Shown here: piece after piece, positions 47,638-54,824 of the stretch | How positions within the stretch are numbered: position 1 is the first letter of the stretch | Layout: each line of letters begins with the position of its first letter | Assembly (NCBI GenBank): GCA_963804165.1 | Contig: CAWDPO010000015.1 | Location: forward strand, 64,001-128,000 | DNA: 64,000 bases | Source of the DNA: an uncultured delta proteobacterium | GTDB lineage: Bacteria > Desulfobacterota > Binatia > UBA9968 | Reading direction: 5' to 3' | The notes under the pieces: model-generated | The model's database searches: none | The model's input: only the letters and a program-made list of their open reading frames with translations | Told to the model about the DNA's origin: nothing | Translations under genes and position numbers: made by a program

Positions 47638-48440
47638 ATCATGGCGGCTGTTTACAGGGTGGGTAAGAAGTGGCGGGCGGATTGGATCGATAATGAGGGC
47701 GTTAGGCATCGCCAACGATTCGAGACTAAAGGAGCGGCCGACGAACATCTTGATAGCATCAAGGCGAAGCTTCGGAACGGCACCTATGTTGCGCCGCAAA
47801 AGGTCTGGCTCTTTGGCGCCTTGGCCGATTCGTGGATAGCCAACCGGATTGAGCAGTCACGCACACCCGGCGCCGGCTATCGTCCCTCGAGCCTCGCACA
47901 GTGGCAAAGCCACGTCGCTCACATGAAGGTTTGCTTTGAGAACGAAAGGTAAACGCGCTCGATGCTAAGGCAATCGAACGAGCTATTGCAGTGTTTCAGT
48001 TGCCAAAAGAGCAGGGCGGCCGCGGACTGTCGCCGCGAACCGTCGCCAAAGTGCTCACCACCATGAGCCGGGTTTTTAGGTTCGGGATACGTAACCGTTG
48101 CGGCATTGAAGCGGATCCGACAAAACTAATCGAGCGGGTCAAGGAAAGTTCGGGCGAGCAGAACGAAACCGGCGAGGCTCTTTACAGCGGACTTCATGAA
48201 GTCACGGAAAAAGAGGTTTTGACTCCGCAGGAAACGAAGCAGGTTGTACTTGCAGCGAAGCCCGGGCTTTACCGGACTATCATTCAGACGGCAATCTATA
48301 CCGGCGCTAGAATCAGCGAACTACTTGCCCTCAGGTGGGCGGACGTGGATCTTGACCGCGGAATGGTCGCAATCCGGCGCACAGTGTCGACGGCGCGGGT
48401 AAAAGGGGAGACGGCAGGGGAGAGGCACCGCTGGTTTAAT

Positions 48441-48958
48441 CGCTGCGGGTTAATTCCCCGCAGCTTGCTGCGATATAGTGGCTCGTATGAGCCGATATAT
48501 CCATAAGAGTCATAATGTTTCAGTACTGCTGTATCACATTGTTTGTCCGGCTAAGTACCGCAGAGTGGTTTTTACACCACCGGTGGACCAAAAGGTCAAA
48601 GAGACCTGTCTGGAGATCAGCAAACGGTACGAGATGGCGTTTATTGAGATAGGGACAGACGAAGACCACGTGCACTTTTTGGTGCAGTCGGTGCCAGTGT
48701 ACAGTCCGAAGAAGATCGTGCAGATCATCAAGAGCATCACCGCCCGAGAAATCTTTAGGCTGTGCCCGGAAGTGAAGAAGAAGCTGTGGGGAGGAGAGTT
48801 TTGGAGTGACGGGTATTTCATGAGCACGGTAGGGCAGCATGGCAATGAACAGAGCATTAAAAAGTACATTGAGGGTCAAGGTTCACAGTACACGCAGCTG
48901 CACCGCCAACAACTCAGTCTTTTCTGATACCCCGCAGCTTGCTGCGGGGTAGTTCATT
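48441..48958 (+). mobile_element. IS200/IS605-family element, tnpA only (ends +/-1 nt)
   Basis: CCCCGCAGCTTGCTGCG hairpins at both ends; removal rejoins integrase as HRWFN|PKTKKG; no target duplication. Confidence 0.88.
48487..48927 (+). CDS. tnpA: IS200 Y1 HUH transposase
   Basis: YHIV.PAKYRR, DHVH (HUH), KS.TAR, LWGGEFW..GYF, IKKYI..Q. Confidence 0.95.
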   Translation: MSRYIHKSHNVSVLLYHIVCPAKYRRVVFTPPVDQKVKETCLEISKRYEMAFIEIGTDEDHVHFLVQSVPVYSPKKIVQIIKSITAREIFRLCPEVKKKLWGGEFWSDGYFMSTVGQHGNEQSIKKYIEGQGSQYTQLHRQQLSLF

Positions 48959-50141: not shown

Positions 50142-50882
50142 ATGGCACTGTCGAGCAAAGATTTCGTTTTCGAGATACAGCGCATGGTGCGCGCTAAACA
50201 CTCCAAGGATCACCCCATTATTGGCATGATCGAAGAGGGCAAGCTCGACCGCGCGCAGCTCAAGGGCTTCGTCGGCCAATTCTATCTGTTTTTCCCCAAG
50301 CCGTTTCCGAAGCCAATCGCGGCGATGTTGAGCCGCTGCCCGGACGATCCGGAGATGGAAAAAATGTGGATCGAGAACGTCGTCGAAGAAGGGACGGGCG
50401 AGATCACGGGAACGGATAGCCACAAGGGACTGTTTATTCGGTTTGCCAAAGGCTGCGGATACAGCAAGGAAGAACTGGATCGCGTCGAACCGCTGCCGGA
50501 GACGGAGGCATTTCTCGACTGGCGCGAGCTATTGATGTATCAGCGAAGCTGGTTGGAGCTTTACGCCTGCCAAGGGTTTTGTCTCGAAGGCACCGCCGGC
50601 GAGCGCATGACGCGCATCGTCAACGGTCTAACGAAACATTACGGATTTGACCGGGAGTCGGACGATATTCGTTACTGGACGCTGCACATGGGGGTCGACG
50701 AAGAGCATATGAAGGTCGGTCCCTTCGCGGTGGAACGTTACGCCGTGAGCGAGCCCCAACAAGCGACGGTGCGCGCTTCGGTACAAAAAACCCTCGACCA
50801 GTTTTGGCTTGCTTTTGACGGCATCAAACGCGCCTTTGTCGACAAGGATCCAGTTTATGCCCGCTGGCGCAACGGCAAGTAA
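50142..50882 (+). CDS. Heme-oxygenase-like diiron enzyme (TenA/PqqC/CADD-like)
   Basis: ENVVEE..H, CLEG, YWTLH..VDEEH ligand pattern. Confidence 0.82.
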   Translation: MALSSKDFVFEIQRMVRAKHSKDHPIIGMIEEGKLDRAQLKGFVGQFYLFFPKPFPKPIAAMLSRCPDDPEMEKMWIENVVEEGTGEITGTDSHKGLFIRFAKGCGYSKEELDRVEPLPETEAFLDWRELLMYQRSWLELYACQGFCLEGTAGERMTRIVNGLTKHYGFDRESDDIRYWTLHMGVDEEHMKVGPFAVERYAVSEPQQATVRASVQKTLDQFWLAFDGIKRAFVDKDPVYARWRNGK

Positions 50883-50897
50883 CCAAGGAGTCAAAGT

Positions 50898-51554
50898 ATG
50901 GAAATGGTCGATCTATCGCGGCTGATTTACGACGGCATGCCGAAAATTCCCATCTTGCCGGAAGTTCACGTACAAAAGTTTTTGAGTCTGGAAAAAGGCC
51001 ATCCATTAAACGTCACCGAATTGTCGCTGCCGTGTCACGCCGGCACTCACGTCGACGCGCCCATTCACATCGTGCCCAATGGAAAGTCCATCGAACAGCT
51101 GCCGCTCGATGCGTTCGTGGGGCCGGGCGCGGTGATCGGCGTTAAAAAAAACGGCGGTGAAGAAGTGACGGCAAAAGATCTTGAAACGTCCGGCGTGCCG
51201 GTAAACCGCGGTGATATTCTGATGCTCTACACCGGCTGGGACGAGAAATTCGACGGCCCGGAGTACAATCTACATCCATATTTATCCGTCGATGCCGCCG
51301 AATGGATGGTGCGAAAGGGCATCAAGTTGTTCGGCATCGACTGCATCACGGTGGATTTGCCGACACCGCTTCGACCGAAAGGATTCGATTTTCCAGTGCA
51401 CAAAACGTTGCTCGGCAATGAAGTCTTGATCGCCGAGAACGTCGCCAATCTTGGCAGCATCGTCGGCAAGCGCACGCGCATCATGGCGTTGCCGTTGCGC
51501 GTGAAGGGCAGCGATGCCGGCCACGCGCGCATCATTGCGGAGATCTTGAACTGA
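50898..51554 (+). CDS. Cyclase family metallohydrolase (kynurenine formamidase-like)
   Basis: HAGTHVDAP.H, GID..T.D, H..LL...V.I.EN. Confidence 0.9.
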   Translation: MEMVDLSRLIYDGMPKIPILPEVHVQKFLSLEKGHPLNVTELSLPCHAGTHVDAPIHIVPNGKSIEQLPLDAFVGPGAVIGVKKNGGEEVTAKDLETSGVPVNRGDILMLYTGWDEKFDGPEYNLHPYLSVDAAEWMVRKGIKLFGIDCITVDLPTPLRPKGFDFPVHKTLLGNEVLIAENVANLGSIVGKRTRIMALPLRVKGSDAGHARIIAEILN

Positions 51555-51558
51555 TCCC

Positions 51559-52527
51559 ATGGCGCTCACGAAGCCGATCAAAGGAATCATCGGTGCTTGT
51601 CTGACCCCGTTCGATGAGAACGACCGGGTAAATTACAAAGCCCTCGAGAAAGAAATCGATTTCATCGTTGCCGATTGCGATGCGATTACGATCGCCGCCG
51701 TGGAAGCCGCGGAGTACACCATGCTCTCGCGCGACGAGCGTAAAGAAGTCCTAAAAGTCGCCACGGAGATGGTGAACAGACGAGTGCCTGTGATTCTCGG
51801 CTGCTCGAGCCCGTCGCCCAAAGAGGTGTTAGAATTGGCGGAGTATTCGGCAAAAGTGGGCGGCGATCTGGTTCAGGTGTTGATGCCGCTACGGCCGTGG
51901 GGTGGCCAGCCGACCATCGCCGAGTTGATGGAATTTTATACTCAAGTCGCTTCGGCGAGCCCATTGCCGGTGACTTGTTACCATAACCCCGGGCCCGGCG
52001 CGGACCCACCGCAAGACGCTTTCGTTAAGATCAGCGAGATCGACAACATCCGCTATTTCAAGGAGAGCTCAAGAGACATCACGAAAATCTCGCGGTTGAT
52101 CGAACAGATAGATCTTGCGGGACGCGGTCATTATTTCACCACGATGCAGCCGCTTCTGGTTACGTTGATGCTCGGCGGTTCGGGCGCGACGATGCCGCCG
52201 CCGGGAACACGCATCGGTTCGCAGATTGTAAAAGCATTCAGGGCAGGGGATTTAGACAGGGCGCGCTTCTGGGCGCGTTGCTACGCGCTGTTTCCCGGCA
52301 AGTGGGCAGCCTATGGCCTGCCGCCGGTGATGAAGTCGGCGATGAAGCATTTCGGCGTCGACATCGGCAATCCTTGCCGGCCCTACGCGCCGGTGAGCCC
52401 GCGCGACCACGCGCAGATCGGTCAATTTCTGCGACAAGTGGGTTTGATCGGTGAAGCGGGACCGACGCCTCAAGCCTTGCTCGATGCCCAGGATACACTC
52501 CGGCAGGAAGATACCTTTCTGCGTTAG
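51559..52527 (+). CDS. DHDPS/NAL-family class I aldolase-like protein
   Basis: LTPFD, YHNP, Schiff-base FKESS motif. Confidence 0.85.
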   Translation: MALTKPIKGIIGACLTPFDENDRVNYKALEKEIDFIVADCDAITIAAVEAAEYTMLSRDERKEVLKVATEMVNRRVPVILGCSSPSPKEVLELAEYSAKVGGDLVQVLMPLRPWGGQPTIAELMEFYTQVASASPLPVTCYHNPGPGADPPQDAFVKISEIDNIRYFKESSRDITKISRLIEQIDLAGRGHYFTTMQPLLVTLMLGGSGATMPPPGTRIGSQIVKAFRAGDLDRARFWARCYALFPGKWAAYGLPPVMKSAMKHFGVDIGNPCRPYAPVSPRDHAQIGQFLRQVGLIGEAGPTPQALLDAQDTLRQEDTFLR

Positions 52528-52592
52528 CGAATCAGAATCGGAGAGTTGCAGAATCACCTGCGCACCCACAGCGCGCGACGGCGTAGTGATTT

Positions 52593-52775
52593 ATGGAATG
52601 GATCAAAGATCTGTCGGATAGATTGGTCATCTGGTTATTGCGAGCGTCTTCGGGATTCGGCAAAGAGCTGACAGCGGATGGCAAACGAGAACAGGAGCTC
52701 TGGCGCGAACAGCGGCTGCGCAATTTGCGCGGTTTGACCTTGCGCGCGCGGCAAGGCTTCGAACGCAAAGATTAG
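52593..52775 (+). CDS. Small hypothetical protein
   Basis: 60-aa ORF filling the gap between co-oriented genes. Confidence 0.4.
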   Translation: MEWIKDLSDRLVIWLLRASSGFGKELTADGKREQELWREQRLRNLRGLTLRARQGFERKD

Positions 52776-52797
52776 CCTCACCTCGCGTAAAGTTTTC

Positions 52798-53955
52798 ATG
52801 CAATTCTCAATCGGGCGCAAGAAAATCGTCATTCTCGGCGGCGGCTGCGGCGGCGTCGTCGCGGCGACCCACCTGGGCCGCAAGCTCGGCCGGGACCACG
52901 ATGTGATTCTTATCGACCGGCGCGCCGAGCATCTTTTCATGCCGGCATTTCTTTTTATCATGCTCGGTGAACGCCAGCCGCGCGATATCACCAGGAGCTT
53001 AGCATCGTTGGAGAAGCGCAACGTAAAAGTCATTCAGTCGGAAGTACTCGGCATCGATCCTGTTCGCCAGGAAGTTTCGTTTGAGAAAGAAAAAATCAAT
53101 TACGATTATCTGATCGTTTCTCTGGGTCTGCAAACGAGGCCTGATTTAGTTCCAGGTTTCGCCGAATCATCGCAGCACCCTTGGGAAATGGAATCTGCAG
53201 TGCGATTGCGTGACACGCTCGCGTCCTTTCGCGGCGGCAGAGTCGTCGTTGGGGTTCCGCTCGGGCCGTACCGCTGCCCGCCGGCGCCGTATGAAGCGCA
53301 ATGGATGCTCGACGGGTATTTCCGGCAAAGAGGCATTCGCGAGCGGGTCGAGATCGAATACTTCACGCGCGAAGCCGAACCCACCGGCGAGGCTCACGAT
53401 CCGGTGGTTTGGATGGACGCCGAAAGCAAACGGCGCGGCATCAAGCAAAACTACGAGTTCGTGGTTCGCTCCATCGATCCGGAACGAAGATTGGTCCAAG
53501 GCTTGTACAATTACAAAATACCTTACGACCTGCTGGTCATGGTGCCGCCGCACCGGCCGGCGCAGGTGTTGCTCGACAGCGGCCTAGCCGACACTGAAAC
53601 CGGTATTAGAGTGGATTACGACACGTTGGAAACCAAATGGGAAAACGTCTTCGCCATCGGCGACTGTGCCGACATGCCTGCGTCCAAAGCCGGCGGTGTG
53701 GCGCACCAGGAGGCCGACGTTCTGGCGCATAACTTGGCCGTTCAGATCACCGGCAAAGGTCGGCCGGTGGATCTCTGGCTGCACACGATATGACTGCTGG
53801 CGTTCGGCGCTGGACGCGCCGCCGCGAATCGAACGACTTATCCCACCGGCTGGCCGCCATTCGGCGTCACGGACCCAAAAACCTGGGGTCCGTCAAGAAT
53901 GATCTATTGGGCGAAAATCGGTTTCGAGAAATGGTGGCTCTGGCGTTACTTCTGA
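52798..53955 (+). CDS. SQR/FCSD-family FAD-dependent oxidoreductase with in-frame TGA at 53791 (candidate selenocysteine)
   Basis: ILGGGCGG, YRCPPAPYE, VFAIGD, SKAG..A; same frame continues 53 codons after TGA, ending PSRMIYWAKIGFEKWWLWRYF, a typical SQR C-terminus. Confidence 0.88.
53805..53821 (+). promoter_or_regulatory. Candidate bacterial SECIS hairpin
   Basis: CGGCGC-TGGAC-GCGCCG stem-loop starting 11 nt after the in-frame TGA. Confidence 0.6.
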
Positions 53956-54090
53956 TCTTGGACTCTCATTGAAAACTAGAATCTCAATGCTCTCGGTTCG
54001 CACGCTAATTCTTGCTGTGCAGCGGAGGGGAGAAGGCGATGTTCGGTCTTTGCCTTAGGACGGGTGGATCGAAAATCACCTTGGATATAA

Positions 54091-54118
54091 AGTTTACATA
54101 ATATCTCTTATCAGACGT
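54091..54118 (-). other. dif-like XerCD recombination site
   Basis: Minus strand ACGTCTGATAA-GAGATA-TTATGTAAACT, 11-6-11 layout with XerD-type arm; intergenic between convergent genes. Confidence 0.8.
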
Positions 54119-54140
54119 TCTCGATACTAATAAAATTGCT

Positions 54141-54824
54141 CTATTTTGCCGGTGCCGGCACCGAACTCCTCGCTTCCAATTCCGCCACTTTTACAGCCAA
54201 CGGTGAGCCGGGGTTCTCCTTCACATAATCCTTGTAAGCTTGCACCGCTGTCTTCGTGTCACCCAGCTGCTCGGCGCAGCGCGCCTTGCCGAGCACAGCA
54301 CGGGACTGTAACGCGCCGACGATTTTTTCCGCCTCGGCAAAGTGTTCGATGGCCGCTTTACACTGTTTCAACTGTTCTTCGGTCTCCGCTCGCGTGACGA
54401 GCGCTATCTGCCGATACAGGCTGTCGGGTTTGGTGGCGACCACGGAGCGCTCGGCTGCGTTGAGCGCCTTGTCAAGTTGATTCGTCGCCAAATAACTGTT
54501 GGCGAGATAAATATGCGCTAGCACTGAATAGCGGGACCATCGGAAGGTTTGGGTTTTTTCGAAGCCGGCAATCGCGTCGCTATATTTTTGATTCTGGTAC
54601 AATGACAATGCTCGGGTGAATTCGCGTGACGCCGAGACGTTCTGGGATTCCTTAAATGACTGCCAAGCCCACAATGCCAAGGCTAATATAATGATAGCAG
54701 CCGTTGCCGCGAGGACGGCCGTTTTGTGCCCGCCGAGGTACTCCAAAGCGGAGTCGGAGCCGACCTGAAACCAGTCGGGTTGACGCAATTGTTTTCTGCT
54801 GATGCGTCTGCTTGCAGTTGCCAT
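54141..54824 (-). CDS. Membrane-anchored TPR protein (YfgM-like)
   Basis: RK.L..PD.F N-terminus, single TM, helical TPR-like repeats. Confidence 0.8.
   Translation of the reverse strand: MATASRRISRKQLRQPDWFQVGSDSALEYLGGHKTAVLAATAAIIILALALWAWQSFKESQNVSASREFTRALSLYQNQKYSDAIAGFEKTQTFRWSRYSVLAHIYLANSYLATNQLDKALNAAERSVVATKPDSLYRQIALVTRAETEEQLKQCKAAIEHFAEAEKIVGALQSRAVLGKARCAEQLGDTKTAVQAYKDYVKENPGSPLAVKVAELEARSSVPAPAK

Follow-up and report, generated by a model that had tools for sequence, protein, structure and literature searches.

A conserved in-frame TGA codon predicted to specify selenocysteine at a catalytic position of a sulfide:quinone oxidoreductase-like flavoprotein in Binatia

Introduction

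Does a TGA codon within an otherwise uninterrupted reading frame end the gene, or does it specify selenocysteine (Sec)? This question is raised by a locus of an uncultured delta proteobacterium (GTDB: Desulfobacterota; Binatia; UBA9968). The window analyzed here comprises 64,000 nucleotides (positions 64,001 to 128,000 of the forward strand of contig CAWDPO010000015.1; G+C content of 55.5%). It belongs to the draft assembly GCA_963804165.1, which consists of 46 contigs and is 81% complete with 5% contamination. The list of open reading frames (ORFs) for the window contains an entry of 331 aa (52798..53793, plus strand) that starts with ATG at 52798 and ends on the TGA at 53791–53793. In the raw sequence, which reads ATA TGA CTG at 53788–53796, the frame is unbroken past this codon up to a second TGA at 53953–53955, yielding 385 codons. 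Translation of 52798–53955 with TGA written as U gives a single internal U at residue 332, followed by 53 further residues (...LWLHTI-U-LLAFGAGRAAANRTTYPTGWPPFGVTDPKTWGPSRMIYWAKIGFEKWWLWRYF). We report that, as judged from comparison with homologous loci, the internal TGA is almost certainly read as Sec at the catalytic cysteine position of a flavoprotein resembling sulfide:quinone oxidoreductases (SQRs).

A preliminary description of the locus had noted the continuation of the frame to 385 aa, a redox cysteine of the CP.A.YE type (identified here as Cys160), and a hairpin close to the TGA; all elements that it listed are indeed present in the sequence. Neither the open frame alone nor the hairpin alone exceeds chance expectation: among 117 TGA-ended frames of at least 100 codons in the window, 21 (~18%) also remain open for the next 53 codons. 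The locus goes beyond chance because the TGA is conserved in all 189 loci that cover the site, synonymous sites of the hairpin stem are preserved, and purifying selection acts on the part of the protein that follows the TGA.

Conservation of the in-frame TGA codon

A six-frame search of 41 related genomes identified the gene in 35, one of which is the genome of the window itself; the six without a match (G002, G010, G011, G016, G017, and G040) are 60–97% complete. Each of the 36 matched stretches spanning residue 332 contains exactly one TGA, and three stop-free matched stretches end short of this residue. At all 29 loci inspected codon by codon, the TGA occupies the same codon, within the context HTI-U-LL(A/S)xGAGRAAANRT. 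Locus L046 (genome G019) was excluded from this set, as tblastn splits its gene into two frames, the second piece containing the TGA; another locus, L035, comes from a genome flagged as unpublished (G005), and no result hinges on it. Among named genome records of GTDB, 79 of 80 loci have the TGA, the contig of L097, the remaining one, stopping at residue 325; of the loci returned from metagenome contigs, 80 of 80 have it. Pooling yields 190 loci. The site is covered in 189 of them, and every one of these 189 has TGA, even where protein identity drops to 65%. These loci represent 145 distinct 120-nt segments, and the distinct count is the fairer one, as the first two sets are partly drawn from the same genomes.

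At L046 and at G020:C449, the match to the gene falls into two pieces that lie in different frames or are separated by a gap, with breaks near residues 320 and 274–299. Such frameshifts reflect either assembly errors or pseudogenes.

The incompleteness and contamination of the draft genome could have suggested that the TGA in the window is a sequencing or assembly error, or that the gene is a recent pseudogene of a single genome. This explanation is refuted by the occurrence of the same TGA in 145 distinct sequences from independent assemblies.

The real terminator behaves differently from the internal codon. Among 28 orthologs with the end present, it is TGA in 7, TAA in 10, and TAG in 11, always at the same position. 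Since the terminator is interchangeable, TGA has kept its role as a stop in this lineage, and it is the internal TGA alone that is frozen. Its surroundings are conserved as well: of the 145 distinct sequences, 141 have the rare codon ATA directly before the TGA and 143 have C directly after it (53788–53794 in the window). These immediate surroundings of the UGA are thus under constraint at the nucleotide level. UGA followed by C is a weak termination signal, which also favors ordinary read-through.

Selection on the downstream coding region

Nonsynonymous and synonymous changes (pN and pS) were counted by the Nei-Gojobori method in 19 ungapped full-length genes, 12 from the window's genus and 7 from another family. 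Within the genus, pN/pS equals 0.11 in the tail (codons 345–385) and 0.14 in the upstream codons 1–331; between families, the values are 0.21 and 0.30, respectively. The synonymous divergence of the tail is 0.58–0.70. Judging by these counts, the tail is constrained at the protein level at least as strongly as the rest of the gene, and purifying selection on codons 345–385 indicates that it is translated.

These data bear on a first alternative, namely that translation does end at this TGA, with a product of 331 aa and a downstream frame that is untranslated or a relic. Automatic gene calls agree with it: 116 of the 120 best homologs among public protein predictions are 331 aa long and end at the TGA, and a single one, P0024, is full-length. 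The frequency of chance 53-codon extensions given above also speaks in its favor. On the other hand, a 331-aa product would be deprived of the second catalytic residue and of the strands and helix that complete the fold at the C-terminus; selection on the tail is as strong as on the gene body; a relic would not hold its frame, length, and stop position across orthologs with 65–92% identity; and the internal codon is never TAA or TAG, whereas the terminal stop varies. We consider a genuine stop extremely improbable.

Protein family, fold, and redox pair

The read-through protein matches the Pfam domains Pyr_redox_2 and FCSD_central. Among proteins of solved structure, the closest in sequence are human SQOR (E ~1e-34), Acidianus SQR, flavocytochrome c sulfide dehydrogenase (FCSD), Aquifex SQR, and Acidithiobacillus SQR. 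In the alignment with human SQOR, the query segment 'lhtiC(U)llafgagraa' is placed against 'ytsCplvtgynrv', so that the TGA falls on the C-terminal active-site redox cysteine, and 'pyrCppap' is placed against 'pvkCagap', so that Cys160 falls on the first one. By this alignment both SQR redox positions are occupied, the second by the TGA. The position of the TGA at the second redox cysteine, already proposed in the preliminary description, is borne out by cysteines in the same column of human SQOR, of P0024 (74% identical), and of nearly all relatives with 30–40% identity. In an alignment of 55 sequences (A2), the TGA column is Cys in at least 90% of rows, the column of Cys160 is part of the family consensus PYKCPxAPYE, and, of the flavin adenine dinucleotide (FAD)-binding glycines, G14 and G19 are invariant and G16 nearly so.

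The AlphaFold model built from the same alignment has a predicted local distance difference test (pLDDT) score of 94.5 and a predicted template modeling (TM) score of 0.92. Its nearest structural neighbors are SQRs from Aquifex, human, and Acidithiobacillus, and FCSD (TM 0.79–0.85). Pfam, the model, and the structure matches agree on a FAD fold with two Rossmann domains, of the SQR/FCSD type. The predicted C-terminus is a Trp/Phe-rich helix (residues 367–384) that may resemble a monotopic membrane anchor. No second full-length SQR-like gene was found in the window's genome at E up to 1e-10; the other SQR-like matches are two flavoproteins, aligned over only ~100–135 N-terminal residues.

The predicted protein shares the fold (TM 0.79–0.85) and both redox positions with human mitochondrial SQOR (PDB 6oi5, 6oi6, 8dhk) and with the enzymes from Aquifex (3hyv) and Acidithiobacillus (3t31). 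It differs from them by Sec as the predicted second redox residue and by its length, 385 aa with one predicted C-terminal helix as against 405–430 aa. It also seems to lack a third cysteine at the position that links FAD in type I SQRs. The flavoprotein subunit of FCSD (PDB 1fcd, 3vrd, 5n1t) has the FCSD_central domain in common with it and gives TM values of 0.81–0.84, but no cytochrome c gene adjoins the gene in the window, and the Rossmann fold starts at residue 9, leaving no room for an export signal. Other Sec-using members of the flavoprotein disulfide-reductase superfamily likewise have Sec in the redox pair, but the families and the place of Sec in the fold are different.

Candidate SECIS element

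A potential hairpin begins 11 nt after the TGA. It is formed by CGGCGC (53805–53810) and GCGCCG (53816–53821), enclosing the loop TGGAC (53811–53815), and the spacing between the TGA and the loop is 17 nt. The model of the bacterial selenocysteine insertion sequence (bSECIS), as quoted from a 2026 review of prokaryotic selenoproteomes (PMC13188914), specifies a loop of 3–9 nt, an upper stem of 4–16 bp, G in the first two loop positions, 16–37 nt between the UGA and the loop, and a minimum free energy of at most -7.5 kcal/mol. The corresponding values for our hairpin, i.e., a 5-nt loop, a 6-bp stem, G at loop position 2, 17 nt, and -10.6 kcal/mol, all fall within the quoted limits. With the outer GCG/CGC helix (53800–53825), the energy is -15.8 kcal/mol.

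Among the 145 distinct sequences, only 2 of 870 stem cells are unpaired and 19 of 870 are G-U wobbles, and the loop conforms to NGGNN in all 145. The third codon positions are telling in this respect. Four-fold sites are nearly frozen in the stem (Gly +5: C 142, T 3; Arg +8: C 144, T 1; Ala +9: C 135, T 9, A 1), where the rare changes are from C to T opposite G, whereas all four bases occur in the loop (Ala +6: G 69, T 55, A 9, C 12; Gly +7: A 85, C 25, G 25, T 10) and in the flank (Ala +10: C 82, T 27, G 23, A 13; Ala +11: A 81, C 33, G 19, T 12). In agreement with this, the synonymous divergence of codons 333–344 is 0.35–0.43, compared with 0.58–0.70 elsewhere.

The Cys form P0024 contains EPGK where the Sec forms have GAGR, and hence the 5' arm of the hairpin cannot be encoded. 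P0024 may thus serve as a natural control, the loss of the hairpin being argued from amino acids only.

Genome-wide, the hairpin motif occurs 17 times, with a TGA 8–16 nt upstream in two cases. The second of these, on contig C16, is a chance match, as the frame there is full of stops.

Selenocysteine machinery and assessment of the Sec reading

The window's genome encodes selA, selB, selD, and tRNA-Sec (Table 1), each scoring above the curated cut-off; selD, selB, and selA are consecutive on one contig. The selB model matches in two pieces, at positions 2–346 and 527–580. In related genomes, selA is above the cut-off in 38 of 41, the remaining three being 60–93% complete.

The machinery helps to weigh a second alternative, in which the UGA is read through without Sec, either by near-cognate suppression (with Trp, Cys, or Arg) or owing to a lineage-specific reassignment of TGA. 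The UGA-C context described above is compatible with such read-through. Yet TGA is the gene's own terminator in 7 of 28 orthologs, the Sec machinery is complete and conserved, the hairpin stands at the distance required by SelB-type decoding, and the site is a redox cysteine position, where Sec/Cys exchange is the rule in selenoproteins and where a Cys form does exist. We regard read-through without Sec as very improbable.

Several points weigh against Sec decoding in an SQR-type enzyme. Compensatory double substitutions were observed in none of the seven stem pairs, all changes being one-sided and of the wobble type. In the absence of covariation the RNA argument rests on synonymous sites, and GAGR may be conserved for protein reasons. 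The fold of a 76-nt stretch is no better than that of its shuffles (z = +1.42; 193 of 200 shuffles are at least as stable), so that stability alone is no evidence. An Rfam scan of 52500–54200 gave no match at E up to 1, and no similar hairpin was seen after the TGA of selD in the same genome. No sulfur-oxidation genes were found among the neighbors, and therefore the assignment as a sulfide oxidase is based on homology only. Finally, both Sec incorporation and enzyme activity are argued here from comparison and homology.

Taking all observations together, we find it very likely that the gene encodes an FAD flavoprotein of the SQR/FCSD fold, in which a hairpin directs the decoding of TGA as Sec and which forms a lineage separate from the type III Sec SQRs discussed below. 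The comparative evidence supports the overall interpretation of the preliminary description, i.e., a TGA decoded as Sec in a Cys/Sec enzyme. The follow-up that it had suggested agrees: the TGA persists in relatives, the sel genes and tRNA-Sec are all present, the hairpin is conserved and fits the published bSECIS model, and the base-call error that it had named as a refuting case is excluded by independent sequences.

A mechanism can be outlined from comparative data and homology. SelB would bind the hairpin inside the coding region and deliver Sec-tRNA to the UGA. Sec332 would replace the C-terminal redox cysteine and pair with Cys160 beside the flavin, and the catalytic cycle might proceed via a selenenylsulfide or a Se-S(n)-S bridge, where Cys-type SQRs use a disulfide or trisulfide. 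FAD would accept the electrons and probably hand them on to a quinone at a site close to the C-terminal helix. Least certain in this outline is the physiological substrate, for which homology suggests sulfide as the default.

Relation to known selenocysteine-containing SQRs

A selenoprotein SQR has been predicted by deep-Sep in Desulfosediminicola (Xiao and Zhang, 2025; PMC12013277), and the 2026 review gives the motif of that SQR family as HxxU, citing deep-Sep (PMC13188914). The preliminary description did not count SQR among the classic selenoprotein families and left novelty unclaimed; the NCBIfam model NF049943, the 2025 deep-Sep prediction, and the 2026 review now include SQR. Thus, Sec SQRs have been known since 2025 as a prediction, and the lineage described here is a separate and near-fixed one that is missed by current models and annotations. 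Our literature searches returned no relevant title or abstract on selenocysteine in Binatia, and Sec-containing sulfide:quinone enzymes appeared there only in the 2026 review.

NF049943, the model of type III Sec SQRs, is the best family match of our protein, with 262 bits compared with a cut-off of 525. Members of the window's clade score 226–262 bits and unrelated Cys clades 237–255, whereas 525–588 bits are reached by P0168, a truncated true member, and by the type III Cys forms P0163 and P0179. The two groups have much in common, including the superfamily, the fold, Sec at the same catalytic column, the HxxU motif (HTIU in our case), and the existence of Cys homologs, and both are known from prediction. 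They differ in that ours is a separate clade with a host lineage of Binatia and metagenome-assembled genomes (MAGs) labeled as Acidobacteriota.

In an exhaustive search of 1.84 billion protein representatives, the clade's own representatives are 48–87% identical to our protein and all end before the Sec column. The next full-length relatives, outside the clade, are at most 39% identical and nearly all have Cys in this column. The window's clade is recovered with 100% support in a maximum-likelihood tree of 64 sequences, on a branch of length 0.79. A split with 99% support separates it from the type III group, and both are situated among Cys forms. Constraining the window's clade to group with P0168 costs 118 log-likelihood units (p = 4e-12 in the approximately unbiased test), with the caveat that the constraint was chosen once the tree was known. 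Two separate Cys-to-Sec replacements at one site are the simplest explanation. Given the score far below the cut-off and the separate clade, the window's protein very likely represents a second, independent Sec-bearing SQR-like lineage.

The Cys form P0024 (385 aa) is nested within the window's clade, which suggests a reversion from Sec to Cys. A metagenome search with P0024 did not find its own contig (the best match had 76% identity); each of the 80 loci that it did return has the TGA.

Record titles of the relatives mostly refer to 'Candidatus Binatia' MAGs, with older labels of Deltaproteobacteria and Thermodesulfobacteriota also present; four MAGs at 65–66% identity are labeled Acidobacteriota. 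Metagenome matches and the list of sequencing runs point mainly to soil, the shares of individual runs being small (at most 0.12, at the DNA level) and no RNA run being on the list.

In three other SQR-like clades, representatives (P0164, P0182, and P0245) break off exactly one residue short of the conserved Cys column. These could be additional, unrecognized Sec forms or simply contig ends; their ends hint at a recurrent Cys-to-Sec replacement at this site across the superfamily.

Genomic context and possible substrates

Features of the locus and of the Sec machinery are collected in Table 1.

Table 1. Coordinates of the SQR-like gene, its predicted elements and neighbors (positions in the window), and Sec machinery genes (contigs C16 and C24 of the same genome)
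Feature	Position	Strand	Evidence and remarks
Complete coding sequence, SQR-like flavoprotein, 385 aa, predicted Sec332	52798..53955	+	Frame, Pfam, AlphaFold model; public calls end at 53793 (331 aa)
Rossmann FAD-binding motif GGGCGG, residues 14–19	52837..52854	+	Alignment A2
TGC, Cys160 in YRCPPAPYE, first redox Cys	53275..53277	+	Aligns with Cys of human SQOR
In-frame TGA, predicted Sec332, motif HTIU	53791..53793	+	Conservation, Cys in homologs
Candidate bacterial SECIS core, stem CGGCGC/GCGCCG, loop UGGAC	53805..53821	+	Fold, conservation; 53800–53825 with outer GCG/CGC helix
Post-Sec tail, residues 333–385, with predicted terminal Trp/Phe-rich helix, residues 367–384 (53896–53949)	53794..53952	+	pN/pS, model
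True stop codon, TGA in the window's gene	53953..53955	+	Orthologs stop at the same position
60-aa ORF, ends 22 nt before the SQR-like gene start	52593..52775	+	tblastn match in 79/80 genome loci
Upstream trio: CADD/PqqC-like iron enzyme (PF14518), cyclase/arylformamidase-like (PF04199), DHDPS-family aldolase	50142-52527	+	
selA	C16:143011-144339	-	610 bits
selB	C16:141779-142867	-	357 bits
selD	C16:139949-140875	-	385 bits; one in-frame TGA (KAAG-U-AAKL); selD–selB–selA span C16:139949-144339
tRNA-Sec	C24:201780-201870		76 bits

The immediate neighbors of the gene in the window are a DHDPS-like gene, the small ORF, and a gene for a TPR protein. The 60-aa ORF has 11 invariant residues in 28 sequences and is matched also at an Acidobacteriota-labeled locus; it belongs to no Pfam or NCBIfam family. 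Judging from this association, it may be a partner or a co-transcribed gene of the selenoenzyme. Within flanks limited to 3 kb, the CADD/PqqC-like gene is found upstream in 61 of 80 loci, the cyclase-like gene in 67, and the DHDPS-like gene in 77; the DHDPS-family aldolase is retained even at Acidobacteriota-labeled loci. A few kilobases upstream of the cluster, a 171-aa ORF (47991–48506, plus strand) has a partial match to phage integrase (PF00589, E = 3e-7).

This context leads to a third alternative, which concerns the substrate and leaves the Sec reading intact: the enzyme could act, along with the conserved upstream genes, not on free sulfide but on another chalcogen or thiol compound, such as a persulfide, polysulfide, selenide, or a pathway intermediate. 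The long branch of the clade (0.79), its identity of at most 39% to any other full-length representative, the conservation of the upstream genes (the small ORF included), and the lack of sulfur-oxidation genes among the neighbors agree with this possibility. At the same time, both redox positions, the FAD motifs, and the SQR fold are retained, the predicted Trp-rich C-terminal helix may resemble a monotopic membrane anchor, and synteny within one class need not imply a common function. We consider a substrate other than free sulfide possible but, on balance, unlikely. A broader scenario is more doubtful still. Under it, a second independent, near-fixed Sec SQR-like lineage of soil Binatia and some Acidobacteriota, its gene always following the 60-aa protein and the three-gene cluster, would carry out chalcogen redox chemistry other than ordinary sulfide detoxification (e.g., with persulfide, polysulfide, or selenide).

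Implications

If TGA is decoded as we propose, the whole lineage is mis-annotated, its public proteins being devoid of the catalytic residue and the C-terminal helix. Since public records end at the TGA, a truncated 'sulfide:quinone oxidoreductase' is what enters metabolic reconstructions made for Binatia and for soil metagenomes. These proteins are not recovered by the NCBIfam selenoprotein model, as the window's protein is below the NF049943 cut-off; a second model or a lower threshold would correct hundreds of records.

To our knowledge, the persulfide and trisulfide chemistry of SQRs has been studied to date with Cys enzymes only. The window's protein and P0024 form a natural Sec/Cys pair within one clade and thus offer a ready comparison for the role of selenium in this chemistry. 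At the level of the superfamily, the tree and the constrained-tree test indicate that the same catalytic cysteine has been replaced by Sec at least twice.

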